Shown: positions 3,734 to 47,553, counted from the first letter of the stretch. The stretch: 61,316 bases of DNA from Candidatus Hodarchaeota archaeon (GCA_016839785.1 JAEOTQ010000030.1:1-61316), one strand, 5' to 3'. Made by a program: numbers and translations. The notes: a model not told the origin generated them from the sequence alone.

Positions 3734-3792
3734 GGTATATACCTTTGTAAATACTTTTCCTATCTAAACCGGCCTTAGGTTCGGATTTGGGG
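3734..3792 (+). repeat. Dispersed intergenic repeat, copy B
   Basis: Sequence ggtatatacctttgtaaatacttttcctatctaaaccggccttaggttcggatttgggg. Confidence 0.75.
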
Positions 3793-4278: not shown

Positions 4279-4326
4279 GGTATATACCTTGATATATACT
4301 TTTGTTATCTAAACCAGCCTTTTACA
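4279..4326 (+). repeat. Dispersed intergenic repeat, copy C
   Basis: Sequence ggtatataccttgatatatacttttgttatctaaaccagccttttac. Confidence 0.8.
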
Positions 4327-4586
4327 TCACAAAGTGGATTTATTTTATCAAACTAGAGGGGGGATAAGCTAATGCGCGTTTAAAAATACCCTCTTCCTTT
4401 TTCGTTGTAGGTTTACAGTAATTGGCGCTAATGCTTTTAATACCTCAACTGTATTTCCTGCGGAACAATAGAAATCACAAGATTAGTGCCATTATCTTAA
4501 AGTTATTAACAGAAACTAAGTTTTTCTTAATTTGAAACATAAAAATCAGTTGAACTTTCAATAATACATTAACTACTGATTTAAGG

Positions 4587-11230: not shown

Positions 11231-11280
11231 TATATACTCTGGTATATACTTTTTCTATCTAAACCAGCCTTTGACGATAC
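11231..11280 (+). repeat. Dispersed intergenic repeat, copy D
   Basis: Sequence tatatactctggtatatactttttctatctaaaccagcctttgacgatac. Confidence 0.8.
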
Positions 11281-11439
11281 TCCCTCACAAGGATATTGCC
11301 TTAGCTTATTAGATCAACTATTCTAGGTTCGCTATATATCAAGGTTGATATTTTATTAACAATCTCGTTAAAACCTTTTTTTAGTAGGATTTTAGATAAA
11401 TTTTACCATGACATAAACCAGGAAAGAGGAGAAACAGTA

Positions 11440-11829
11440 ATGACTAATATAAAAGATGTCCAATTTGTTAATTTACATCCTGAAACTGGATATACCCATT
11501 GTACATATGTTAAGGCTGGCAATTTCATTTTTACAAGTTATCATGCTGCAACATTAGATGAAGGGGGTAATCCACTTACAGATATCGAATCACAAACGGA
11601 AAATATTTTTAAAAACCTAAAAAAGACCCTTGAAGATGCAAATGCGTCTCTCGATGATATTATTAAAACCACAGTTTTAATAAAGAACAAAGAAGATTTC
11701 AAAAAGATGATCGGTATCTACAGGAACCAATTCAGAACTGATTTTCCAGCACGAACAACAATTATTTCTGATTTCTTGAGTGATCGTATTTTAATCCAAA
11801 TTGATGTTGTTGCCTATGTTAGCGACTAG
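11440..11829 (+). CDS. ridA: RidA/YjgF/L-PSP family protein
   Basis: 129 aa. The length and the motifs ...FPARTTIISDFL...IQIDVVAYV are typical of the family. Confidence 0.75.
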   Translation: MTNIKDVQFVNLHPETGYTHCTYVKAGNFIFTSYHAATLDEGGNPLTDIESQTENIFKNLKKTLEDANASLDDIIKTTVLIKNKEDFKKMIGIYRNQFRTDFPARTTIISDFLSDRILIQIDVVAYVSD

Positions 11830-11872
11830 AAGGATGGAACTATGGTCAAAATTTTTTGAATTTCATTTTTTG

Positions 11873-11933
11873 AATAGTATTTACTCCAGTATTTTTGCTT
11901 GAGATCTAAAACTGCCTTTTAAGGAGTTGAAAA
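11873..11933 (+). repeat. Dispersed intergenic repeat, copy E (degenerate)
   Basis: Sequence aatagtatttactccagtatttttgcttgagatctaaaactgccttttaaggagttg. Confidence 0.55.
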
Positions 11934-11945
11934 TCTTGAGAACTC

Positions 11946-12619: not shown

Positions 12620-12766
12620 GTGTAAATACCCTAGTATTTATTTTTCCTATCTAAACCAACCTTTTACGGAGTTCAGATAACTACTAAGTCATGAATATCT
12701 ACCCGAGTATATACTTGTGTAATCTAAACCAGTCATGGACGACAATCGTGTCAATTCATCGTTTAG
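12620..12766 (+). repeat. Dispersed intergenic repeat, copy F (two tandem units)
   Basis: Unit 1 is gtgtaaataccctagtatttatttttcctatctaaaccaaccttttacggagtt. Unit 2 is gaatatctacccgagtatatacttgtgtaatctaaaccagtcatggacgac... Confidence 0.8.
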
Positions 12767-13803: not shown

Positions 13804-14109
13804 ATGGAGAATCGTTCGAAAGTTTTGATTGGATCAATATTTATTGTCATTCTTATTCTTATTTTAAGTCCTTTTGCTGATCCTAATCCTGATGGTTTAG
13901 AAAGTGCTGCTGGTGAGGGACGCTCTGAAGGAAGTGCATTTGATTTAGGCTTCTTAACCGATTATGGATCTGAAGACTCCCTAATTTATCAATTGATCCA
14001 GAATGACATGATAGCAACCATTGTTTCCGGTTTAATTGGAGTAATTGTAGTTGTTTGCTTATTCAGTCTACCTCTTCTATTCTTACGAATAAAAAAGAGT
14101 AATTCTTAA
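13804..14109 (+). CDS. PDGLE-domain small membrane protein (CbiN/NikN-like)
   Basis: It carries the ADPNPDGLESAA motif and two TM helices. It lies between cbiM and cbiQ. Confidence 0.7.
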   Translation: MENRSKVLIGSIFIVILILILSPFADPNPDGLESAAGEGRSEGSAFDLGFLTDYGSEDSLIYQLIQNDMIATIVSGLIGVIVVVCLFSLPLLFLRIKKSNS

Positions 14110-14907
14110 ATGACCGATATACACCATCACTATAGTGCTCTACAGACTCAGAAGCAAGTATTAGATATTAGGAGTAAGCTTATCGGCTTAGTTCTTATTG
14201 TCCTTGGATGTTCCTTCCTTGTTGATTTCTCTCAAGTCTCTTGGTATACAATTCTTCTTCTCCTTCTCGTCCTCATTTTAAAGCCTCGAAAAACAATTTT
14301 AAAACAAATTGTTTTAACACTCCCTTTAATTATTTCACTATCGCTTATTTCATTTTTTTCTTTTGATCCGCCAACATATACCAATTTTTTGTTTGAAGCA
14401 ACACATAATAAAGTTTCATTTGCATTATTTACTGCCTTTCGTAGCATTGTAATAATATCCTACATCTTGGTAATCGTTAATTCTGAAGAGTCATTTTTCG
14501 AAATTATTTACGGATTGGATGATTTAAAACTTCCAGGGTTACTTACAAACTTGTTATTTTTAACCTATCGTTTTTTTAGTCTTATCCAAGAGGAATTTTC
14601 GCGAATTTTAGATGCTCGTTCGAATCGAATGTATAGTGAGAGTTCTATCATGCAATTAAGATCATTAAAACTTATCGGTAACATTTTAGGAGCCTCACTT
14701 GCTCGATCGTTTAAACGCGCTGAATACATTTCAGCTTCGTTGTCTGCAAGAGGTTTTTCAGGCACTAGTAAATTCTCTCATCCCGAAAAACCATGGACAC
14801 GAAGTGGTTTCTTATTTGTTATCTTTACAATAAATATCAGCATTTTTATTGGATTTTATGGGCAGAATTCACCTATTGATTTGCTTTTAGGATTGTTATT
14901 CCGATGA
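14110..14907 (+). CDS. cbiQ: ECF transporter T component CbiQ
   Basis: The protein is polytopic. Its position and 4-nt overlap with cbiO fit the operon, and it has the ARSNR/ARGF motifs. Confidence 0.75.
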   Translation: MTDIHHHYSALQTQKQVLDIRSKLIGLVLIVLGCSFLVDFSQVSWYTILLLLLVLILKPRKTILKQIVLTLPLIISLSLISFFSFDPPTYTNFLFEATHNKVSFALFTAFRSIVIISYILVIVNSEESFFEIIYGLDDLKLPGLLTNLLFLTYRFFSLIQEEFSRILDARSNRMYSESSIMQLRSLKLIGNILGASLARSFKRAEYISASLSARGFSGTSKFSHPEKPWTRSGFLFVIFTINISIFIGFYGQNSPIDLLLGLLFR

Positions 14908-15614
14908 AGTTGGATACTGAATACGCATTGAGTGTTCGCAATTTAAGTTATAAATATATGAAAAACCAGCCTGAGGTTTTGAGGAACATTTCTGTTAATT
15001 TTCCTCTTCATAAAATCACAGCTATTGTCGGGCCTAATGGATCAGGTAAGACTACTCTAATGAAGCATTTTAATGGCCTTTTTTTGGCTCAAAATGGTGA
15101 AATCTTTGTAAACGGCCAAGTTCTAATTAAGAAAACTCGTAAAACCATTCAAAAACAGATTGGTTTAGTTTTTCAGAATCCAGATGAACAGATTTTTTAT
15201 CCAAAAGTCTATGATGATGTATCATTTGGCCCAAGGAATATGAACTTGAGTAAAGCTGAAATCCATGAAAGAGTCGTTCAAGCTGGAAAATCAGCCCAGA
15301 TCTCACATTTAATGGATCGAATCACTTTCAATTTGTCCTTTGGAGAAAAAAAGAAAGTAGCTTTTGCTGGTATCTTAGCTATGCGACCTGATATACTTGT
15401 ATTAGATGAACCCACCATCGGTATAGATCCATGGTCGAAAGATCATTTTATTACTCTCATCAGATCTTTTAGCCCTGAAAAAACAGTGATAGTAATAACC
15501 CATGATTTTGAAATAATGAAATTTGTTGATTACATTATACTTATGAAAGAAGGCGAAGTAAAGGGTAAGTATACTGACTTTAACTCCTTTTTTCAAGAAG
15601 AATTTACTAGTTAA
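14904..15614 (+). CDS. cbiO: ECF transporter ATPase CbiO
   Basis: Walker A GPNGSGKTT, signature LSFGEKKKV and Walker B ILVLDEPT are all present. Confidence 0.9.
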   Translation: MKLDTEYALSVRNLSYKYMKNQPEVLRNISVNFPLHKITAIVGPNGSGKTTLMKHFNGLFLAQNGEIFVNGQVLIKKTRKTIQKQIGLVFQNPDEQIFYPKVYDDVSFGPRNMNLSKAEIHERVVQAGKSAQISHLMDRITFNLSFGEKKKVAFAGILAMRPDILVLDEPTIGIDPWSKDHFITLIRSFSPEKTVIVITHDFEIMKFVDYIILMKEGEVKGKYTDFNSFFQEEFTS

Positions 15615-15623
15615 GGTGATTTA

Positions 15624-16040
15624 ATGACTTTAAAAGAAATTCGTGAGACAGTTACTTTTTCTTGTAATCCACGATTCAAAAAATTACTTTCTACGAAGAA
15701 GACAGAATTCGGATATCAAACAAAATCTCAAATGATTAGGGATGCACTTCAGTTCTTTTTCGATTCAGAAAAGATGTTAGAGAGGGCTTCTGATACTGAT
15801 CTGATCGTGACGTTGATTTCAGTTAGTTACAATCATCATGATTCAACTACACTAGAAGAATATTTGCGTGTACAACATAAATCTAATGTAACCTTTTCTT
15901 CACATTTTCATCTACCCTCTGGTGACTGTATTGAAATTTTAATGATAAATGATCAGGCTAAAAATGTTAAAAAGCTAATTCAAGAGCTACGTAGTATTAA
16001 TGGTTTGAAAAATATATCTTTCAAATTAAACCATGACTAA
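15624..16040 (+). CDS. nikR: NikR-type nickel-responsive ribbon-helix-helix regulator
   Basis: The N-terminal RHH reads VTFSCNP...QMIRDALQFF. The C-terminal His/Cys metal site reads YNHHD...VQHK...HFHLPSGDCIE. Confidence 0.8.
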   Translation: MTLKEIRETVTFSCNPRFKKLLSTKKTEFGYQTKSQMIRDALQFFFDSEKMLERASDTDLIVTLISVSYNHHDSTTLEEYLRVQHKSNVTFSSHFHLPSGDCIEILMINDQAKNVKKLIQELRSINGLKNISFKLNHD

Positions 16041-16064: not shown

Positions 16065-16499
16065 CTAATTCTGGACAGGATGAGTCACACATCCGCTATC
16101 CGGCAGGTTAGCAACCAGAGACTGGTTGCTTTCCATTGGGACTACTTGGGAACCAGAGTGAAACCGTTGAAGAATATTACGGGCAGCATTGTAGTCGGCA
16201 TTCAGATGAACTCCACACTCCTGACAACAAAAAGAACCACGCGAACGCCGATTCTTCTTCGCTAGATGCCCACACTTACTACATTGCTGGGAGGTATACG
16301 CTTCATTGACTCGGAGTACGGTCATACCAACCAGTTTAGCCTTATATTCAAGCATTTGCACGAATTGGAGAAAGGGTAGCTGGACAAACGCTTGATTGGT
16401 ACGTTTTCCAAGATTACTGCGCTGTTTCCACCCCGTATTATACCCAAGAACGATCGTTTGAATTTTCTGCGTTAAACAATAATTGATAATTCGACGGTT
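16065..16499 (-). pseudogene. tnpB: 5'-truncated tnpB (IS200/IS605-family OrfB): C-terminal RuvC-II/zinc-ribbon/RuvC-III part only
   Basis: The frame is open from 16499 with no start. It reads ...IVLGYNTGWKQRSNLGKRTNQAF...EAYTSQQCSKCGH...CQECGVHLNADYNAARNI. It ends abruptly at the GGTATATACC of repeat copy G. Confidence 0.8.
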
Positions 16500-16557
16500 G
16501 GTATATACCCTAGTATATACTTTTCTAATCTAAACCAGCCTTTTACGACGTTGGGGA
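16500..16557 (+). repeat. Dispersed intergenic repeat, copy G (closest to consensus)
   Basis: Sequence ggtatataccctagtatatacttttctaatctaaaccagccttttacgacgttgggg. Confidence 0.85.
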
Positions 16558-16618
16558 ATCAAAACCTGTTCGGAAATATGCTCATTCACATCTAGATGGC
16601 GCTCTTCTATCGATTGAT

Positions 16619-17410
16619 TTATTTCAGGTTGCGTGCAAGTCCGAAAAAAACTGGGATAAATGAAAATAATTCGGCAGAATTATGTGATTCAAGCATTTGT
16701 TGTAGTTTTGCTAGTTTATGTTTATTTTTCTCTGGAAGGAAGTGCCCAAGCTTCTCCATTTCTAATTCGTATAATTCATTTACAATATCAGGGGAGAGTA
16801 CTGTTGACTGAAGTCCTATTTCAGCTTTCAATCCCACTTGGAAAAAGATACTTCTCAACTTTCGTCCAATGAAGGGGTCATGAGCTGATAAAGATCCTAG
16901 AAGGAGTTCTTCCCACAACTCACTTGCGGGGTAATCGAGGCGTCCTCCATAATCGGGTTCAGCTAAACAGGCTATCCACTTTCCAACACGTGTAACTCGT
17001 TTCATTTCTTTTAGAATAGTAAGAGGTTCTTTTACCCACATTAAAAAATAATGGCACAGAGTGATATCGAAACTATTCGATGGGAAGGGTAAGATCTCTC
17101 CCTTCCCATGAATGATATTTGGATAAAATGATTCTCCTCGAGAATAGTTTAATGCAATTGAATTCCAATCAATGCCCACTAAATTTGCTTTCGGATTTAT
17201 TGTCTGAATTTCCCTTAAAACTGCTCCTGTTCCTGAACCCACCTCAAGGATTTGTTTGGCATGAAATAAATTCATTTTACGATATAGTTGCTTTCTGGTT
17301 GAAACCGTCCATTCCATCTGCTCTTCATAGAGCTCATTGAAATAGCGAGCCTCTTCCTCCGTTTGAATTTGATCTTTCAAGGCTAGTCGTTTGCTTGACT
17401 TTCGGGACAT
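16619..17410 (-). CDS. Class I SAM-dependent methyltransferase
   Basis: ILEVGSGTGAVL is the motif I signature. It overlaps the upstream radical-SAM gene by 28 nt. Confidence 0.8.
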   Translation of the reverse strand: MSRKSSKRLALKDQIQTEEEARYFNELYEEQMEWTVSTRKQLYRKMNLFHAKQILEVGSGTGAVLREIQTINPKANLVGIDWNSIALNYSRGESFYPNIIHGKGEILPFPSNSFDITLCHYFLMWVKEPLTILKEMKRVTRVGKWIACLAEPDYGGRLDYPASELWEELLLGSLSAHDPFIGRKLRSIFFQVGLKAEIGLQSTVLSPDIVNELYELEMEKLGHFLPEKNKHKLAKLQQMLESHNSAELFSFIPVFFGLARNLK

Positions 17411-18708
17411 ATGTATTCCTCACGATAAAAACTCAGAGGACAGCCGCCACCACAAAGATCAAGTTGGTTACAATCCCTGCACTCATCAGGGGCGTTTGCA
17501 TGGGTGCGAAGATCTTTAGATATCGGATTATTCCATATGCTTTCCCAACTATCATGGAGGATATTACCTAATCCCTTGTAGTAGCTCTGACAGGGAATAA
17601 CTGTCCCATTTGGTTCTATTGCCATAGCTAAATGGGATGCAGAACATCGTTTCACACCCAAACCTAGGTTATTCGGATCGAGTTCGCAGTAACGAGTAGG
17701 GGTGTACCAAATGAACTGTAAATCATATGCATCTGCGGTATCTTGTATTGATTCAAGAATGGGGATCAATTCGCTCTCTGTGAATGCGATGTGTGAGACA
17801 TTTTCTCCTTTTCCTGCATATATTATTGAGTTACAGGCGAATTGTTCCACTTCAAGACTAGCTAAGAATTCTATAGTCTCTTCGATCTTGGGGGCATTCA
17901 ATCGTGTTAAAGTGGTATTCGTTAATGTATAAATAGATGTATCTATAGCATTTTTGATACCTGTCACAGTTTCAACCCACGCCTGATCATTTCCTACCAT
18001 CTGGTTGTGAATCCGCTCATCTACACTTTCAAAGGTGATCTGAATATGGTCTAGACCGTTATTTACTAGTCTATCCACATATTTATCATCTTGTAGATTT
18101 CTACCATTTGTTATAAGACCTGTAACAATTCCAATATTCTCTGCATGATCAATCATTTCAGGCAGATCAGAGCGTAACGTGGGTTCCCCACCCGTGAAGG
18201 TTATATGGGGGATGGAAATTTTCCAAAGTTTTTCTAGAATAGATTTCCATTGAGTAATATCTAATTCATTTGCATTTGGTGAATTCGGTTGATTGTAACA
18301 ATGTTCACATTTATTATTACAACGGTAAGTGATTGCTAAATCCATTCGTAAAGGAGCTGTCAAATTTAGCTCTGTTAGATTTGATTCTTCCATCTTTAAG
18401 GAATGGATTGGACAAATATCATCGGTAGTGGATAAGGTGTGAATCATTTCTTTCAGGGAGTGCAGATCTGTTGTAGCTTGCTGCTCATTGACGCGGTAAA
18501 GACTTCTTAGCTCCTTAATGATATCAGCGTCAGTATTACCTTTCAAAATTCTTTCCACAAAAAAAGTGGCTGTAGGATTGAGATTCAATATTCTTGAGGC
18601 ATTGATAATCAGGAGACTACTATCACCTTGTCTACGGAGGTGTAATCGGATTTCTCCATCATTTCCTTCTCGTAAATGTATAAGCTTTGCTTCTTCAGTA
18701 GATTTCAT
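17383..18708 (-). CDS. Radical SAM / SPASM-domain enzyme with PqqD-like (RRE-type) N-terminal domain
   Basis: It has CNNKCEHC (CX3CX2C). The C-terminal CSASH...PCQ and CRDCNQLDLCGGGC (CX2CX5CX3C) form the SPASM motif. The N-terminal ~90 aa read LLIINASRILNLNPTATFFVERILKGNTDADIIKELRSLY. Confidence 0.85.
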   Translation of the reverse strand: MKSTEEAKLIHLREGNDGEIRLHLRRQGDSSLLIINASRILNLNPTATFFVERILKGNTDADIIKELRSLYRVNEQQATTDLHSLKEMIHTLSTTDDICPIHSLKMEESNLTELNLTAPLRMDLAITYRCNNKCEHCYNQPNSPNANELDITQWKSILEKLWKISIPHITFTGGEPTLRSDLPEMIDHAENIGIVTGLITNGRNLQDDKYVDRLVNNGLDHIQITFESVDERIHNQMVGNDQAWVETVTGIKNAIDTSIYTLTNTTLTRLNAPKIEETIEFLASLEVEQFACNSIIYAGKGENVSHIAFTESELIPILESIQDTADAYDLQFIWYTPTRYCELDPNNLGLGVKRCSASHLAMAIEPNGTVIPCQSYYKGLGNILHDSWESIWNNPISKDLRTHANAPDECRDCNQLDLCGGGCPLSFYREEYICPESQAND

Positions 18709-20211
18709 TCATCGTCCACCTCCAGCACAAGCACAGGCACAACCAGCACATGCACAAGCGCAACCTCCGCCACCTCTTGAACCTCCACTACTACTTATGG
18801 GAACTGGATGACTTATTCGTGTCACTCGGTGAGTGAATGATCTCCCATGGGGGATCCAGTGCCATCTATGGTAACCATAATGGTAATACCACGGATAGTA
18901 TGGGTAATACTCCTCTCGCTCTGTTATTTGTACTTCTAACTCTGGGAGGAATTCTTCATCTAAGATTGCCCAAAACCAGGCTTCTTGGGGAATATTTCGT
19001 GGATCAGATTCGGATTTGATTGTTGCAACTGAATCTTGTATTAATTTTTCATAATATTCTACTGTTCTTTCGTATGAATATCCACGGATACGTCGTTGAG
19101 TGTATTTAACTAAGCTGGATACTGCTTTCACCATATCATCTTCATCAATAGAAAAATCTGGTCGTATTGATTGTATGACGATTTTTTGGTATTTACTGAG
19201 ATGCTTCTGTGAAGCACCTTCCATCAGTTCAAGGTGAGGATTATCATGGGATAATTCTCTAAGTCGTCCTTTCTGGATCAATGTGAGAATTATCATTGAG
19301 ATTGTAATATTTACAGGCTTTTCTAAGACAATGGCCACTTCTTCTCGTCGAAGATTTGTTCGCGGCCCTGCTGTCGGGACTGAAACAAAGGGCGGAATAT
19401 AATCCATCAATCGGCGGCGTTTCTTCGTATATATTAAGGTAACAACTACAATTACAACTAGTATTACCCCCACAAAACCCGCAAACAACAAAAGTTCCTC
19501 TATTGTGGGAGGAATACTTGTGTACCAGGTTACTCCTTCTTTCGGGAAAGAAACTCCGTATTGATATTGTACTGAAGGAGAAGCCAGGGGTTCATTCCAT
19601 TCGAATACTTTACGGCCATCAACTGAAGAATATTCTCGTTCAGGTGGATCTGAATAGTGATATTTGGTATATGTTGTTTCATCTACGGTTGTAGGAAATA
19701 TAATTCTAGTTGTTAGATTTGTTGTACCTGTAGTATACGGGGAACTCCACCATGTATTTCCGAATTCTACACTTGCCATATCGTCTTCTTCGGTATCTTC
19801 AAATATCATGTACGGTTGGTTTCCCTTAACATGCAAAATCCCTGTGTCATGGATAGCGTATTGACCAAGATGGATTTCCACACCGATATTGATCACTTCG
19901 GATTCCCGAATGTCTGAGATAGAGTGTCCATCTACATCTGCAGTCACACTTCCTAGTTTGTAATGTTTGTTCGGAAAACCGATGTCTATGATGTCAATAT
20001 CCTGTCCACCAAGCGCTACAGTAAAATTAATCCAATATTCTATGTCAGTAGATCCGTCGATGTTGATACTTACTTCTACTATTTCCTCTGGAACAGAAAA
20101 ATAGTAAGTGTTCGTAGCTTCAGTATTACTTTTGACTCCACTTAATGGCGTGAGTGCCAATAAGAGAATGAACCCAATCAAATAAGAGGAACGGACTTTT
20201 GTTATCTTCAT
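18709..20211 (-). CDS. Membrane protein with DUF2207-like ectodomain, one TM helix, a cytoplasmic domain and a C-terminal Gly/Cys/Ala tail (candidate radical-SAM substrate)
   Basis: It has a signal peptide. The ectodomain reads YYFSVPEEIVEVSINIDGSTDIEYWINF. The TM helix is LLLFAGFVGVILVVIVVVTLIY. The tail is SSSGGSRGGGGCACACAGCACACAGGGR, and its TGA abuts the next ATG. Confidence 0.85.
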   Translation of the reverse strand: MKITKVRSSYLIGFILLLALTPLSGVKSNTEATNTYYFSVPEEIVEVSINIDGSTDIEYWINFTVALGGQDIDIIDIGFPNKHYKLGSVTADVDGHSISDIRESEVINIGVEIHLGQYAIHDTGILHVKGNQPYMIFEDTEEDDMASVEFGNTWWSSPYTTGTTNLTTRIIFPTTVDETTYTKYHYSDPPEREYSSVDGRKVFEWNEPLASPSVQYQYGVSFPKEGVTWYTSIPPTIEELLLFAGFVGVILVVIVVVTLIYTKKRRRLMDYIPPFVSVPTAGPRTNLRREEVAIVLEKPVNITISMIILTLIQKGRLRELSHDNPHLELMEGASQKHLSKYQKIVIQSIRPDFSIDEDDMVKAVSSLVKYTQRRIRGYSYERTVEYYEKLIQDSVATIKSESDPRNIPQEAWFWAILDEEFLPELEVQITEREEYYPYYPWYYHYGYHRWHWIPHGRSFTHRVTRISHPVPISSSGGSRGGGGCACACAGCACACAGGGR

Positions 20212-20348: not shown

Positions 20349-20400
20349 ATCCAAATTGATGTTGTTGTATATGTTAGTGACTAGAAGGATGGAAACTTGG
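20349..20400 (+). pseudogene. Orphan copy of the last ~11 codons plus stop of the ridA-like gene
   Basis: atccaaattgatgttgttgtatatgttagtgactagaaggatgg aligns with 11794-11840. It encodes IQIDVVVYVSD-stop, against IQIDVVAYVSD-stop in the intact gene. Confidence 0.7.
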
Positions 20401-20426
20401 TGGTTATTAGCTGAATTTCCTTTTCT

Positions 20427-20584
20427 AATAGTATTGACTCTAGTATAGACTTCTCTAATTTGAAGTAGCCAAGGAAGACATTCTTGTCAATTCATGGTTA
20501 TTCAATTTCAAAGTTTAGGGAGTGAGGATTTACGCTTGCGAATACTTTTCCGATCTAAACCAGCCTTTTGTGGAGTTGGGGAAG
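20427..20584 (+). repeat. Dispersed intergenic repeat, copy H (two units)
   Basis: Unit 1 is aatagtattgactctagtatagacttctctaatttgaag...gtcaattcatgg. Unit 2 is gcgaatacttttccgatctaaaccagccttttgtggagttgggg. Confidence 0.75.
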
Positions 20585-42207: not shown

Positions 42208-45200
42208 TTGAACCTGCCATATCCAAATGCCGCTCTAAAAAAGGTATTTTTCCTGATGATTATACTTAGTATTAGCACTAACCATGCTACTGGAGCACTA
42301 TCAAGTAATCTTAGCACTCCTACAATTAATCCTGGGATTATTGCATATTATGATCCATCTGATTCAATTGTTCAGCAGATAGTTACAGAATTTGACAAAA
42401 TTATTCAGCCTTCTTATTCATCCATAAAGCTACAGCCAATACATTCCATTATGGAATTACTCTACCAAACAAAGAAACAAGGTTACATCAATCTATACTT
42501 TTTTCACGGTACTGAAAAAGGAATGTCTATTGCTGATGTAATTGTACCTTGGTCAGATATTTCGATCGTGATCAATGAATCTCCAGTTAATGAGCATATA
42601 ATCTTGTCTTGTTATTCAAATATTCTTGAGCCACTTTTAAAACAGACAAAAGGAGTAATGACTACTGAAGGGGAGAAAGATGCAAAAGTTCTTCTCGTTG
42701 ATGCCCTCCTGTCCGTTGTCTCAATACTTCAGGAAAGCAATAGCACTGTGAAAAGGGAGGCCGCAGAAAGAGTCCTCTCAAGTACATTTGACTTTATTCA
42801 AGCAAATATTGCAGATTTAATAGTTCGGAGTCTATTTCCGATTGAACCAATGAGTGCAACTGCAATTACTTTACCAGAGTATTCAGGTTATGCAGGGCCT
42901 GTTGGTCTGATTATAGATGCTATTTTGGGTGCATTTCAAGGACAAACATTAACTGTCGGAGGGGAATATGAAAGTAGTGTTGAAGATTCGGGGTACGGAA
43001 CGGCAGAGGGTGGTGTATCTGCTGCATTTGGACTTGAATGGAGTTTTTCTCTTTCAGTATTATCTGAGGATACAGTAGCTGGCAATGTATTCATTGCGTT
43101 TTCAACACAGCAATCAGGATTAACTGGAACACTATTAGAAGCATTGGCAGGAGTAGAAATAGCTGTGGAGGGTGAAGGAGATTTTACTTTGAGAATCATT
43201 ACCGACCCAGTTTCCCGTGTAGAAGTGATTGAATGGCATCTCAGAATTAGAATTACTTTGAGTCGAACCATTGGTTTGTATGATCTTATTGAGAAAGTCT
43301 GGCCCTCTGCGAAAAAAACTGTAGATAAACTGCCGAAAAAAATTCGAGGAAAAGTTAAGCGTGCTCTTAACCGGGTCAAAATTACACCTTATTTAGGTGG
43401 AGAGTTTGAAATCTTTTCAAATGCTGATGGAAACGATGAATATGTCATTGCAGTATTTTTTGGTGTATCAATGAATGTAGATATCCCAGTTGTTGATGTT
43501 GGGGGTGGAATAGAAGTTGAATTAGCATTTCATTTTACGAGTCAGGGTAATTTCTTTGTACTGACACTCGAATACGGATTTGAAATTGATGTCCCGTGGC
43601 CTTTCAAAGATAAGCGAAATAAATGGACCCGCTCATGGCAGATTGGACCAGAATCCTCAAATGGTAAACAGATGAATACTGATTCAGATGAGGATGGCTT
43701 GACGGACAGCTTTGAGGTTGAAATTGGGACTGATCCTAATAAATTAGACAGTGATAATGATAGCTTACCTGATGGCGTGGAATTAACAGAATATCAAACT
43801 ATTCCAACAAATCCTGATTCCGATAATGATGGGCTCCTTGATGGTGAAGAGGTGAGTTATTTTGAAGGTAAACATGTAGATCCACTTGGAGATTATGATA
43901 TAGATGGTTTTCCCCATGTTTTAGATCCAGATAGTGATAATGATGGTCTCTTAGATGGCGAAGAGGTCAAAGGACAAAATCAGTATGGATTCATCTCCAA
44001 TCCGCTTAAAATCGATACAGATGGAGATGGACTAACGGATAAGGAGGAAGTAGATGATTCGCTTGAAATTATTGTTGATGGAAGTGTACGTTCTGTGCAC
44101 TCAAATCCTATGGATTATGATAGTGATGGTGACTTTCTACACGATTTAGAAGAAGTAATGATGAATTCAGACCCAATTATGCCAGATACAGATACAGATG
44201 GCATCAACGATTTTGAAGAAGCGCGATTATTTTCATTATACTGGAATCAAACAGATACTGACGGGGATGGCCTTTCCGATGGTGAAGAAATCTTGGGTAC
44301 TCCTGTTAATCTGTATGATCATAATACTGCCTCATATCAAGATGTAATCCTCACTTCTAACCCACATTTGCCAGATTCCGATGGAGATGGTCTTTCTGAT
44401 TTTGAAGAAACATCGACTGGAAGTGAAATTGTGTGGCAAGGTACTTCATTAACAGTTTTCAGTAATCCTCGACAAATAGATACAGACGCTGATGGACTTA
44501 GTGATTACGAAGAAGTTGTTATCGGTACAGATTTACGACAAACAAAACCAGATGTGAATGATTCAGATAATGATGGTCTTAAAGATAGTGAATATTTAAT
44601 ATTTGGAACAGATCCTATAGATGATGATTCAGATAATGATACGATTTCGGATGGATTAGAAGTCCTTTATTGGCATAGTAAACCATTAAAAAATGATAGT
44701 GATGCTGATCGGTTACTCGATGGAGACGAAATTGCGAATTTTACCTTTTTTGATCCTTCTTTTAGTCCATTAAGTAATTATGACGGTGATGCAGACACAG
44801 GATTGTTGGACTTCGATTCTGACGGAGGCGGTGTAAGTGATGGAGCAGAAGTCTTGGCAAATAACGCAACTTACACCTTTAACTTAACTGATCCTGCTGA
44901 TGATAAATGGGCTGATAGTGATCATGATGGAATGCCTAATCAGTGGGAAGAAAAATATGATCTACTCCCATTTGATCCAATTGACAATACAACTGATGAC
45001 GATTATGATCTTCCTGATAGTCTATCCAACGTAGAAGAATACCAATATGGGACATCACCACGTGCTTCAGACACGGATAAGGACTTTCTGAATGATGGAG
45101 AAGAGGTTCTTTATTGGAAGAGTGATCCGTTAAAAAAAGATAGCGATGGAGATGGATTAACCGATGGTGATGAAATCCCTTACATGTTATCAATACTACC

Positions 45201-47553
45201 ATCGATTTTCGTTCCTTCAAGTAATTTTGATGGTGATACTCTTACTGGGATAATGGATAATGATTCAGATAATGATGGGTTACTAGATGGAACTGAAGAA
45301 AGACTTAGTGCCTCGGGGAAATACGGTGGTAGACTCGTGAATGCCACAGACTCAGATACCGATGGCGATGGCCTTAATGATGGAACCGAAGTACAACTTT
45401 ATCAAACTGATCCTACACTCGTCGATACTGATTCTGACATATTGACTGATTTTGAAGAGATAATGGGACAAAATATACTATGGCAAGGTAGTCCAGTTAG
45501 TGTCTATCCAAATCCGAATGATCCTGATAGTGATAATGATGGGTTAACTGACCATGAAGAAGTTATCTTCTGGAATAGCTTCCCTACTGATCCAGATAGT
45601 GATGATGATCAAATCTTCGATGGAGATGAAGTAGTTTATTTCATGACATATGGTGGATTAACACCAGTGGATGATTTTGATTTTGATGGAATAGCAGGTA
45701 TACAAGATGATGACTCTGATAACGACCAGCTATTGGATGGAGAAGAATTATCGCTGGGAACCAACCCCACGTTATCTGATACAGATAATGATATAATGAC
45801 TGATTATGAAGAAGTTCGTGGTTACGGGTTTAATTATATCGATCCTTTTACTGGATCACCAGAACAGCTCCTCTATTTTACCGATCCATTAAATAATGAT
45901 ACTGATGCAGACGGATTATTTGATGGAATTGAAGTAAATGGAATTCCTTATTATTCAGGAGTTGTATATACCGATCCAACAAATATCGATACTGATGGTG
46001 ATGGGCTGATTGATGGATTTGAGGTTAGTGGAATTGATATAATCGTCATGAATAATAATCTAACTGTAATTACAAATCCCATGCACCCAGATACTGACTT
46101 CGATGGGATTAGCGACTTTGAAGAAATCTATAGTTGGAACTGGTATTCTAAACGCACTTATGAGGCGAAAGAGCGTACGGGAGTCATTACTATCGGGAAT
46201 GCAGAAGGGCCTCCTTTACAAGTCCAGGTGACTCGTGCTACCCAATATAGTAGCATCGCAGCACTCAGGGGTGGATATATTACTGATCCGACTGACAATG
46301 ATACTGATGATGATGGTTTAATAGAAGGTACTGAGAAGTATGGAGTAACAAACTATACTTATATTAAATATCCTACTCACGACTATGAAGCTATCTCTAC
46401 TCCTGTGATTACTAACCCTACAAATAATGATACCGATGGTGATGGATTATCTGATGGTTTTGAAGTTAATACTACCAATCCCCATGTTAGCGATACTGAT
46501 CAAGATGGGTTGAGTGATTATGAAGAAATCAATACGTTTCATACCAATCCTAATTCCTATGATACAGATAATGATCTTTTGAACGACAAATATGAGCTTA
46601 TTATCCAATATTATAACTCAACACTTGCCGTCAATAAAACAGATCCTCGAAATTCTGATACTGATAATGACGGTTTACCTGATGGATTTGAAAAATCCAT
46701 TTTACACACTCATCCGCTGAATAACGATTCTGATTTCGATCTTTTAACAGATGGGGACGAAGTAAATAGTTATCAAACAAATCCATTTTTAAACGATACT
46801 GATAATGATGGACTTATTGATTCCCTAGAAGTGAATAGCTATTTTACTGAGCCAACTGAGCCTGATACTGACGCTGATGGAATTTATGATGGAGTAGAAG
46901 TCATCTATTATTCAACTGATCCATTAATTGCTGATGAAAATAGTGATGGGATATTGGATGGGTGGGACTATGATTTTGATAATGATGGTTTATCGGATTA
47001 TGAGGAAACAGTTGTCTATGACACTTTATATTATGAAAGTGATACTGATGACGATGGTTTGATGGATGGGGAAGAACAGAATTACTTTGAACAATGGGGT
47101 GAAGATCCTGCAGGAGATCCAGATAAAGATGGGTTTTCGAGTCTTCATGATAATGATTCTGATGCTGATGGAATTTATGATGCAGATGAATTCGATTTTG
47201 GTACCAATCCCGCTAAAACAGACTCTGATTTCGATGAATTGAGTGATTATGAAGAAATTTTCGTTTTTCTAACTGATCCACTGAAAGCAGATACAGATAA
47301 TGATGGATTGTCTGATTCTGAGGAATTAACAATTGGAACTGATCCTCTGGACTCTGATTCTGATAATGATGGGTGGATAGATGGTGAGGATTCGGAACCG
47401 TTAAATTTCGCTATTCCCAATCTGCTTATTGGACTTGTTGGAATTCCAAGTGTAAGCCTTCTCGCGCTCGCTGTTTTTTTCAGGAAAAGAATCTTCTTCA
47501 AGTCTCAAGATCTATGGAAGAAATTCCGATCGAAAAATGGTTCTGATGCCTGA
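42208..47553 (+). CDS. Giant secreted/anchored protein: N-terminal ~480-aa region (possible caspase/CHAT-like module), then dozens of thrombospondin type-3-like Ca-binding repeats, then a C-terminal TM anchor
   Basis: 1781 aa with a signal peptide. The motif D-x-D-x-DG-(L/I)-x-D-x-x-E recurs from about aa 490 to 1730. The tail reads LLIGLVGIPSVSLLALAVFFRKR. Confidence 0.9.
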   Translation: MNLPYPNAALKKVFFLMIILSISTNHATGALSSNLSTPTINPGIIAYYDPSDSIVQQIVTEFDKIIQPSYSSIKLQPIHSIMELLYQTKKQGYINLYFFHGTEKGMSIADVIVPWSDISIVINESPVNEHIILSCYSNILEPLLKQTKGVMTTEGEKDAKVLLVDALLSVVSILQESNSTVKREAAERVLSSTFDFIQANIADLIVRSLFPIEPMSATAITLPEYSGYAGPVGLIIDAILGAFQGQTLTVGGEYESSVEDSGYGTAEGGVSAAFGLEWSFSLSVLSEDTVAGNVFIAFSTQQSGLTGTLLEALAGVEIAVEGEGDFTLRIITDPVSRVEVIEWHLRIRITLSRTIGLYDLIEKVWPSAKKTVDKLPKKIRGKVKRALNRVKITPYLGGEFEIFSNADGNDEYVIAVFFGVSMNVDIPVVDVGGGIEVELAFHFTSQGNFFVLTLEYGFEIDVPWPFKDKRNKWTRSWQIGPESSNGKQMNTDSDEDGLTDSFEVEIGTDPNKLDSDNDSLPDGVELTEYQTIPTNPDSDNDGLLDGEEVSYFEGKHVDPLGDYDIDGFPHVLDPDSDNDGLLDGEEVKGQNQYGFISNPLKIDTDGDGLTDKEEVDDSLEIIVDGSVRSVHSNPMDYDSDGDFLHDLEEVMMNSDPIMPDTDTDGINDFEEARLFSLYWNQTDTDGDGLSDGEEILGTPVNLYDHNTASYQDVILTSNPHLPDSDGDGLSDFEETSTGSEIVWQGTSLTVFSNPRQIDTDADGLSDYEEVVIGTDLRQTKPDVNDSDNDGLKDSEYLIFGTDPIDDDSDNDTISDGLEVLYWHSKPLKNDSDADRLLDGDEIANFTFFDPSFSPLSNYDGDADTGLLDFDSDGGGVSDGAEVLANNATYTFNLTDPADDKWADSDHDGMPNQWEEKYDLLPFDPIDNTTDDDYDLPDSLSNVEEYQYGTSPRASDTDKDFLNDGEEVLYWKSDPLKKDSDGDGLTDGDEIPYMLSILPSIFVPSSNFDGDTLTGIMDNDSDNDGLLDGTEERLSASGKYGGRLVNATDSDTDGDGLNDGTEVQLYQTDPTLVDTDSDILTDFEEIMGQNILWQGSPVSVYPNPNDPDSDNDGLTDHEEVIFWNSFPTDPDSDDDQIFDGDEVVYFMTYGGLTPVDDFDFDGIAGIQDDDSDNDQLLDGEELSLGTNPTLSDTDNDIMTDYEEVRGYGFNYIDPFTGSPEQLLYFTDPLNNDTDADGLFDGIEVNGIPYYSGVVYTDPTNIDTDGDGLIDGFEVSGIDIIVMNNNLTVITNPMHPDTDFDGISDFEEIYSWNWYSKRTYEAKERTGVITIGNAEGPPLQVQVTRATQYSSIAALRGGYITDPTDNDTDDDGLIEGTEKYGVTNYTYIKYPTHDYEAISTPVITNPTNNDTDGDGLSDGFEVNTTNPHVSDTDQDGLSDYEEINTFHTNPNSYDTDNDLLNDKYELIIQYYNSTLAVNKTDPRNSDTDNDGLPDGFEKSILHTHPLNNDSDFDLLTDGDEVNSYQTNPFLNDTDNDGLIDSLEVNSYFTEPTEPDTDADGIYDGVEVIYYSTDPLIADENSDGILDGWDYDFDNDGLSDYEETVVYDTLYYESDTDDDGLMDGEEQNYFEQWGEDPAGDPDKDGFSSLHDNDSDADGIYDADEFDFGTNPAKTDSDFDELSDYEEIFVFLTDPLKADTDNDGLSDSEELTIGTDPLDSDSDNDGWIDGEDSEPLNFAIPNLLIGLVGIPSVSLLALAVFFRKRIFFKSQDLWKKFRSKNGSDA

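Follow-up and report, generated by a model that had tools for sequence, protein, structure and literature searches.

The locus examined here raises the question of whether a radical S-adenosylmethionine (rSAM) enzyme built like a peptide maturase acts on the tail of a large membrane protein encoded beside it. It lies in a 61,316-nt stretch of DNA from a Candidatus Hodarchaeota archaeon (JAEOTQ010000030.1; the whole stretch is referred to as the window) and comprises three consecutive minus-strand genes. The first encodes a 500-residue membrane protein ending in Cys-Ala repeats, here called the carrier; the second, an rSAM/SPASM enzyme with an N-terminal RiPP recognition element (RRE; RiPP, ribosomally synthesised and post-translationally modified peptide); and the third, a class I SAM-dependent methyltransferase. 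Almost all RRE-dependent radical-SAM enzymes described to date, to our knowledge, make small secreted peptides or peptide-derived cofactors; here, that logic appears to extend to the terminus of a membrane protein that is both large and conserved. The system is real, widespread and apparently uncharacterised, and the three genes probably constitute one functional unit for the post-translational maturation of the membrane protein. An earlier reading of the window (the original prediction) had proposed that an RRE-rSAM/SPASM and methyltransferase module acts on the Cys/Ala tail, and this core claim was supported by every comparative test run.

Direct reading of the sequence reproduced the predicted translational coupling of the three genes. 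The carrier and rSAM genes meet at a TGAATG junction (18706-18711), read on the minus strand as ...GGA CGA TGA ATG AAA..., where the carrier TGA (18711-18709) is followed immediately by the rSAM ATG (18708-18706). The rSAM and methyltransferase genes overlap by 28 nt (17383-17410), from the methyltransferase ATG (17410-17408) to the rSAM TAG (17385-17383). In two Asgard relatives represented by long contigs (L202 and L204), the module consists of exactly the carrier, rSAM and methyltransferase genes, with the 28-nt overlap kept amid flanks that are unrelated to each other, indicating a self-contained unit.

The Cys/Ala tail and its carrier

The carrier C-terminus is exactly SSSGGSRGGGGCACACAGCACACAGGGR (the ending of the tail is also given as GGGGCACACAGCACACAGGGR), as the original prediction of a terminal (Cys-Ala)n tract had it. 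The last 17 residues, Cys-Ala repeats ending in GGGR, are almost invariant: columns C486 to R500 do not vary in the carrier alignment (A1), and an end of the form CACAC(AC)AGCACACAGGGR is present in 117 of the 120 best homologues, archaeal and bacterial, which are 30-36% identical outside the tail. The remaining three lack their C-terminal end and look truncated. The tail is thus the best-conserved region of the family. This first homologue search was word-indexed and could therefore favour shared CACAC words; a second one, which dispensed with word indexing and used a tail-less query (aa 1-478), returned 530 representative clusters at E<=1e-3. Among the best 150 of these, 118 bear a tail (111 canonical, six CxCxC variants and one short version); the other 32 are mostly shorter than 490 aa, stopping inside a domain, and most of them are probably fragments, although a few near-full-length ones, such as P0249 and P0336, are without the tail. 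Orthologues lacking the tail beside a retained rSAM neighbour, or the reverse, had been named in advance as evidence that would refute the proposal; this check did not refute it, since loss of the tail is rare among full-length orthologues.

Across 228 tail-bearing proteins the core contains 5-10 Cys (mode 7), the arrangement seen in the window (3+3 Cys) being the second commonest (33 of 228), and the GGGR ending is nearly universal. At the DNA level, 164 tails comprised 161 distinct sequences in which every synonymous codon is used, which argues for selection on the tail peptide rather than on a DNA repeat and rules out a microsatellite or translated repeat as its source. Upstream of the core lies a conserved motif in which F459, V463, P469 and P471 are invariant or near-invariant (A1). 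Its [TS][NH]P element occurs in 172 of the 228 tail-bearing proteins, and the motif stands 12-25 residues before the Cys core, separated from it by a variable Gly/Ser/Arg linker. This pre-core motif is a candidate recognition sequence for the RRE, and together with the linker and core it lends the end of this large protein a leader-linker-core layout.

The carrier as a whole is well conserved along its length (A1). Its AlphaFold2 (AF2) model, made with 32 homologues in the alignment (pLDDT 81), comprises an N-terminal signal/anchor helix (residues 3-20), a beta-sandwich (38-223), a transmembrane (TM) helix (237-268) and a cytoplasmic region (289-467) that is helical with a small winged-helix-like element. 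This agrees with the layout originally proposed for the protein (signal peptide, ectodomain, one TM helix, ~240-aa cytoplasmic region), and the run of KKRRR after the TM helix would, by the positive-inside rule, place the C-terminal 232 aa in the cytoplasm. The end of the protein (472-500) is predicted to be disordered (pLDDT 30-40), suggesting that the tail is an accessible substrate.

Database searching returned more than 4000 carrier homologues, the closest of which is 97% identical and labelled Candidatus Hodarchaeales, in agreement with an Asgard archaeal origin of the window. None of the NCBIfam families matched the carrier, nor did any Pfam model, including DUF2207 (PF09972 / PF20990) at E<=1; DUF2207_C was matched weakly by eight of the 32 homologues, with a best E-value of 0.01. 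The label "DUF2207-like" given by the original prediction therefore describes a faint, weakly supported resemblance rather than an established membership of the family. When the model was compared with the PDB using Foldseek, the best matches were a 560-580-residue chain of human oligosaccharyltransferase (OST; 8b6l_O, 8pn9_E, 6s7o_E), which we take to be ribophorin I, with E-values of ~1e-9 and TM-scores of just 0.25-0.30; the N-terminal domain of M1 aminopeptidases ranked after it. Like the carrier, ribophorin I has a beta domain on the lumenal side, a single TM helix and a helical domain in the cytosol, and the succession of signal peptide, beta-rich ectodomain, TM helix, cytoplasmic helices and Gly-rich end is common to the carrier, DUF2207 proteins and the ribophorin I fold. 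However, neither a Cys/Ala tail nor an rSAM partner is known in DUF2207 proteins or ribophorin I, whereas the carrier has both. With such low TM-scores the resemblance to ribophorin I is one at fold level, which may reflect homology.

Hodarchaeales-type carriers also contain an aromatic/His-rich stretch, YYPYYPWYYHYGYHRWHW, at aa 436-453 (18853-18906, minus strand). At this position bacterial carriers have an unrelated segment that is ~50 residues longer (A1 columns 510-585).

The putative tailoring enzymes and their linkage to the tail

The second gene product carries the CX3CX2C motif, the SPASM CX2CX5CX3C motif and the PqqD-like N-terminus first noticed in its sequence. All three Pfam domains score above their gathering thresholds: Radical_SAM (PF04055) at 88.6 bits against 29.5, SPASM (PF13186) at 43.0 against 21.5, and PqqD (PF05402; residues 34-85) at 28.4 against 23.4. 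The cysteines of C130-x3-C134-x2-C137 and C410-x2-C413-x5-C419-x3-C423, along with C355 and C373, are invariant among 17 homologues (alignment A2). Motifs and Pfam matches thus assign the protein to the radical SAM superfamily and its SPASM subfamily, while an RRE domain as in RRE-dependent RiPP maturases is indicated by PF05402, by a beta3-alpha3 topology and by a full-length match to SuiB. In the AF2 model (pLDDT 72) this topology runs E22-27, E30-35, E39-43, H45-55, H60-70, H75-94, and the conserved N-terminal residues, R21-x-H23-L24-R25 ... N36-A37 ... N44-x-T46-A47 (A2), fit a domain that would bind a conserved partner.

Foldseek placed SuiB (5v1s/5v1q) first among full-length matches of the enzyme (E 3e-14, ~453 columns, 17-18% identity), followed by SkfB and PqqE. 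By sequence (phmmer against the PDB), SkfB (6efn) was the best match, at E 2.5e-21, followed by PqqE and SuiB. Against NCBIfam, the 25 best-scoring of 81 matched families all fell below their curated cut-offs, the highest score being that of PqqE, followed by a haloarchaeal pseudo-SAM family, NirJ2, GeoRSP, AhbD, WgkB, ScmE, MftC, SkfB and AlbA; the SCIFF maturase family was not among the best matches. Identity with PqqE itself (TIGR02109) was rejected at 134.7 bits against an equivalog cut-off of 381, as was identity with the sactisynthases SkfB (TIGR04403, 92.7 against 300), AlbA (NF012164, 82.0 against 850) and StsB (NF045574, 82.1 against 625). Scores were also below cut-off for the other curated rSAM/SPASM systems (GeoRSP, SynChlorMet ScmE, mycofactocin MftC, WgkB) and for HxsC, NirJ, AhbC/D, the archaeal ACGX-repeat system and others in NCBIfam, and no target-peptide model matches the carrier.

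The third gene product is a methyltransferase, as originally proposed, and is placed in class I by its match to Methyltransf_11 (PF08241; 59.8 bits against a gathering score of 21.2); no specific NCBIfam family scored above cut-off. A methyltransferase of the same type was found in 27 of 38 bacterial or archaeal loci with at least 5 kb of downstream sequence, among the matches listed, and it is co-located with the other two genes in L001, L202 and L204.

Linkage between the tail and the enzyme was assessed from both sides. The tail-first scan used a degenerate DNA pattern for the tail alone, blind to the carrier, over one genome per species, and found at least 120 loci; at every listed locus with upstream sequence available, the carrier is the same protein family. 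Among the matches listed, 97 loci had at least 1.5 kb of downstream sequence. An rSAM gene with CxxxCxxC lies immediately downstream in 84 of them, a Cys-less rSAM paralogue comes first in seven (two of which have a true rSAM gene nearby), and neither is present in six; for one of these six, the genome holds another carrier copy that does have the enzyme. The enzyme-first set was drawn from metagenome loci with an rSAM profile and consisted of the best 80 of 529 confirmed stretches, 45-53% identical to the window enzyme. Sixty of the 75 loci with enough upstream sequence have a tail gene upstream: in 50 a canonical tail ends directly upstream of the rSAM gene, in six the tail is a variant (CVCACAxCACACACVSCACACAHGGAR, or ...CACACVGGGR), and in four it lies 1-2 kb upstream behind an inserted gene or insertion sequence. 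Two loci were indeterminate, and 13 showed no tail in the fetched stretch. Tail-bearing proteins do therefore neighbour this rSAM clade as anticipated (84-91 of 97 loci from the tail, 60 of 75 from the enzyme), and the linkage is strong, not absolute. Many of the loci were available as 8-kb blocks of fixed length or lie on short contigs, such that the absences are partly technical.

Clustering of the enzymes mapped the VS-type variant tail (..CVSCACACA-GGGAR/HGGAR) to a single rSAM cluster, the set comprising the six variants and others already scored as tails in the first scan. The rSAM genes with no nearby tail are scattered among the tail-linked ones, which argues against a separate clade and fits unlinked genes. 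Two tail-bearing carrier genes were observed in some genomes: they stand in tandem in L075 and L088, while a Planctomycetota metagenome-assembled genome has carriers on two contigs (L022 and L059) with an adjacent rSAM gene at L059 only. One rSAM enzyme may serve several carriers.

The original prediction spoke of a possible related archaeal pairing, but the system is mainly bacterial and no archaeal speciality. Tail homologues number in the hundreds and occur in Hodarchaeales/Heimdall Asgard archaea, Anaerolineae and at least eight other bacterial lineages. Most of the listed tail loci belong to Anaerolineae and other Chloroflexota; others were found in Acidobacteriota/Aminicenantes, Planctomycetota, Zixibacteria, Coatesbacteria, Edwardsbacteria, Sabulitectum/Hyd24-12, Clostridia/Syntrophothermus, a deltaproteobacterium and Hodarchaeota/Heimdall/Promethearchaeota. 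Two of the listed loci come from cultured strains, Ornatilinea apprima P3M-1 and Leptolinea sp. HRD-7.

Bacterial cassettes contain additional components. In 73 of 80 evaluable loci, the gene immediately upstream of the carrier encodes a zinc-ribbon protein of 120-150 aa with N-terminal TM helices, a C-terminal CxxC...CPYC and a conserved end, ...EEPKW (in Ornatilinea apprima, L045 6437-6811, minus strand). This protein was considered as the real substrate and rejected as the common one, as neither the window nor the Asgard cassettes contain it. Most Anaerolineae loci also have a pseudo-rSAM gene between the active rSAM and methyltransferase genes (L045 2118-3278, minus strand); in seven loci it directly follows the carrier gene, and it was not found in the window. 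Its product, of ~385 aa, has kept the RRE-like N-terminus (YRLHLRLE..ILIVNASIVLHLN.TA) and lost CX3CX2C, making it a naturally occurring, catalytically dead paralogue that still bears an RRE.

Proposed maturation of the tail and competing explanations

On the reading that we prefer, the 500-residue carrier would insert with its beta-sandwich outside and its last ~230 residues in the cytoplasm, where the RRE of the rSAM enzyme would bind the F-x3-VT-x2-T-N/H-P-x-P stretch upstream of the tail, as RREs bind leader peptides. The radical-SAM/SPASM core would act on the flexible (Cys-Ala)3-Gly-(Cys-Ala)3-GGGR segment, ~15 residues beyond that stretch, and abstract hydrogen from Ala or Gly carbons; the most likely reaction, by analogy with sactisynthases, ranthipeptide synthases and QhpD, would join Cys thiols to these carbons as thioethers. 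The methyltransferase could methylate a thiol left free, the C-terminal carboxylate or Arg, one or more times, and the product would stay on the protein as a rigid, chemically unusual cytoplasmic end-piece rather than being released as a peptide. We consider it quite likely that the tail is the substrate of the rSAM enzyme; thioether chemistry on the tail is possible, and is offered tentatively. In its broadest form, the proposal is of a cross-phylum modification in which RiPP-type machinery, joined in bacteria by the pseudo-rSAM and zinc-ribbon proteins, equips the cytoplasmic tail of a ribophorin-I-like, single-pass carrier with a (Cys-Ala)n end-piece that is crosslinked and methylated, or with a protein-derived cofactor. 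The modified tail would then do the work of a transmembrane device conserved among anaerobes, the Asgard relatives of eukaryotes among them. That larger picture is a serious possibility, if somewhat short of probable.

The pairing of an RRE-rSAM/SPASM enzyme with an adjacent substrate is known logic; what is new is the substrate class, the frozen core, the pseudo-rSAM and zinc-ribbon accessories and the distribution over two domains of life. SuiB/StrB, which forms the Lys-Trp crosslink of streptide, likewise combines an RRE, a radical-SAM barrel and a SPASM domain with an adjacent substrate gene, but there the substrate (SuiA) is a short peptide, its core contains Lys/Trp and the product is exported, whereas the core of the 500-aa membrane protein contains just Cys, Ala, Gly and Arg. 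SkfB and AlbA, which form thioethers from Cys sulfur to alpha-carbon, resemble the present enzyme in having a Cys-rich substrate, auxiliary clusters and a peptide-binding N-terminal domain. In contrast to the carrier system, however, sactipeptide precursors are ~40-60 aa long and their clusters contain proteases and transporters, and a thioether is suggested here by analogy. Ranthipeptide systems (SCIFF/CteB, PapB), with thioethers from Cys to beta- or gamma-carbons, share a Cys-rich core near the C-terminus, a single RRE-rSAM/SPASM enzyme and a wide occurrence in anaerobes; SCIFF precursors, though, are ~45 aa with Cys-x3-Asp/Glu-type motifs, while the carrier tail has no Asp, Glu or Asn acceptors.

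Two further SPASM-type rSAM enzymes modify Cys in proteins whose mature form retains the modification, namely QhpD, acting on QhpC (the gamma subunit of quinohemoprotein amine dehydrogenase), and anSME, acting on sulfatases (the properties of PapB, QhpD and anSME being given as general background). QhpC is a small soluble subunit crosslinked to Asp/Glu, in a motif that the carrier does not contain; anSME has no RRE and oxidises one Cys in a C/S-x-P-x-R motif, which is also absent from the carrier. PqqE/PqqD, the top NCBIfam match, has the same PqqD-type RRE and rSAM/SPASM combination, but operates with a PqqA-like Glu/Tyr peptide and pqqBCF genes, neither of which is present here. There is no Pfam or NCBIfam model for the carrier/rSAM pair, and literature searches that included the tail string, Cys-Ala repeats, DUF2207, SPASM/RRE in Asgard or Chloroflexi and genome-mining surveys found no description of it; the combination, which the original prediction did not recognise as a described system, thus has neither a curated family above cut-off nor a paper that we could find. 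Such loci may already have been tallied in automated genome-mining surveys, as generic "ranthipeptide" or "RRE-containing" clusters, with the substrate unnoticed.

The main alternative is that the tail is a metallothionein-like metal-thiolate or iron-sulfur site with no covalent modification, for which the rSAM enzyme and methyltransferase would assemble or insert a cofactor, or else use the carrier as a scaffold for some other substrate. Runs of alternating CxCxC, here with 5-10 Cys, are a typical feature of metal-thiolate clusters, every carrier is an anaerobe, and the module in the window adjoins an ECF-type (energy-coupling factor) Ni/Co transporter and NikR. These last neighbours are not kept in the Asgard relatives L202 and L204, however, and were dropped as a clue to metal binding. 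Metal sites, moreover, rarely need Ala, Gly and a terminal Arg, which are as invariant here as the Cys residues, and the enzyme has a peptide-binding RRE and matches RiPP crosslinkers best. A metal site consequently appears unlikely.

The same Cys pattern also weighs against maturation of the tail, as do several other points. Around 6% of tail genes have no adjacent rSAM gene and ~17% of rSAM genes no nearby tail, and the methyltransferase is present in just 27 of the 38 evaluable loci. The enzyme scores below the curated cut-off of every sactisynthase or characterised NCBIfam family tested, and the chemistry proposed is a guess from related enzymes that act on Cys-rich substrates. The tail-first scan was bound to the canonical tail, with other carriers bearing divergent tails outside its reach, and co-inheritance within an operon can mimic enzyme-substrate co-evolution.

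It is very unlikely that the system is a classical RiPP with an extremely long leader, in which the tail, once crosslinked, would be cleaved from the protein to yield a small natural product, leaving the 480-aa remainder as a mere carrier. Leader-like motif, linker and core do follow one another in the appropriate order at the C-terminus, and the enzyme has the architecture of a RiPP maturase. The locus nevertheless departs from the classical pattern of short precursor, leader-removing protease and export, as the candidate substrate is a 500-aa membrane protein and none of the lineages examined has a conserved protease, exporter or transporter in its cassette. Furthermore, the whole carrier is conserved, with its extracellular domain and TM helix, and its core does not vary between phyla, whereas antimicrobial RiPPs have hypervariable cores. 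Finally, that the adjacency is meaningless, with the tail a low-complexity end or translated DNA repeat and the two enzymes engaged in unrelated metabolism, is highly improbable: NCBIfam matches to cofactor enzymes (PqqE, NirJ, AhbD) are about equal to those to peptide maturases and Gly-rich tails are common in membrane proteins, but an invariant peptide with codon-level variation excludes a DNA repeat, translational coupling is conserved, and linkage holds in both directions in Asgard archaea and many bacterial phyla.

Maturation of the tail, if true, would provide a function for a family that comprises more than 500 representative clusters and is covered by neither a Pfam nor an NCBIfam model. 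The core is frozen across Asgard archaea, Chloroflexota, Acidobacteriota, Planctomycetota and several candidate phyla, and a core of only Cys, Ala and Gly would tightly limit the available chemistry; it could reveal new crosslinks, for example radical lanthionine-like or sactionine ladders. As substrate, enzyme and methyltransferase are encoded by adjacent genes and two carriers of the system are in culture, it is directly testable.

Coordinates and neighbourhood of the unit

Table 1. Positions in the window of the three genes, of the domains and motifs that they encode, and of the intergenic repeats.
Feature	Position	Strand	Basis or remark
Carrier gene, 500 aa	18709..20211	-	Open reading frame, predicted structure, homologues
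TM helix of carrier, aa 237-268, then KKRRR	19408..19503	-	AF2 secondary structure
Pre-core motif F459-x3-V463-T-x2-[ST]-[NH]-P469-x-P471	18799..18837	-	Alignment A1
Tail GGGG-CACACA-G-CACACA-GGGR, aa 480-500	18712..18774	-	Proposed substrate core region
Cys/Ala core, aa 484-496	18724-18762	-	Within tail
rSAM gene, 441 aa, N-terminal RRE (PqqD-like) and Radical SAM/SPASM	17383..18708	-	Pfam, alignment A2, AF2, Foldseek, phmmer against PDB
RRE domain, aa 22-94	18427..18645	-	PF05402, AF2 topology, A2 invariants
CX3CX2C cluster motif (C130, C134, C137)	18298..18321	-	Sequence, invariant in A2
SPASM domain, Cys C355, C373, C410, C413, C419, C423	17440..17646	-	PF13186, invariant in A2
Class I SAM-dependent methyltransferase gene, 263 aa	16619..17410	-	Methyltransf_11 match
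56-nt repeat copies	256-311, 3737-3792, 4282-4337, 11232-11287, 11879-11934, 12624-12679, 12697-12752, 16503-16558, 20433-20488, 20528-20583		
Second repeat, 76 nt, two copies	11794-11869, 20349-20424		

The genes of the module have a GC content of 0.39-0.40 (0.31-0.33 at third codon positions, GC3), compared with 0.31-0.35 (GC3 0.25-0.28) in neighbouring genes. Together with the mostly bacterial distribution of the system, this slightly raised GC content (against ~0.33) hints at horizontal acquisition, which is plausible. The two copies of the 56-nt repeat (G and H) that the original prediction saw as delimiting the module do flank it, but the repeat is a general intergenic one with many other sites between 256 and 12752. 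All ten copies lie within 256-20583, with none reported beyond 20583. A role for the flanking copies as borders of a mobile island was rejected, given this spread and the different contexts in which relatives carry the module.

The region adjoining the module (13804-16040, plus strand) encodes an ECF-type Ni/Co uptake set (PDGLE/CbiN-like, CbiQ and an ABC ATPase) followed by a NikR-like regulator. Beside the module, a 98-aa open reading frame (16065-16361, minus strand) matches just the C-terminal TNB (zinc-ribbon) domain of TnpB/Cas12f-like proteins, at 83 bits, which marks it as a putative truncated remnant of a transposon-associated nuclease. Further along the window, a 44-60-nt unit recurs at least 26 times within 43681-47393. 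It encodes D-x-D-x-D-G-x-x-D-x-x-E-like repeats of the thrombospondin-type-3 / calcium-binding kind, which presumably belong to a very large surface protein.

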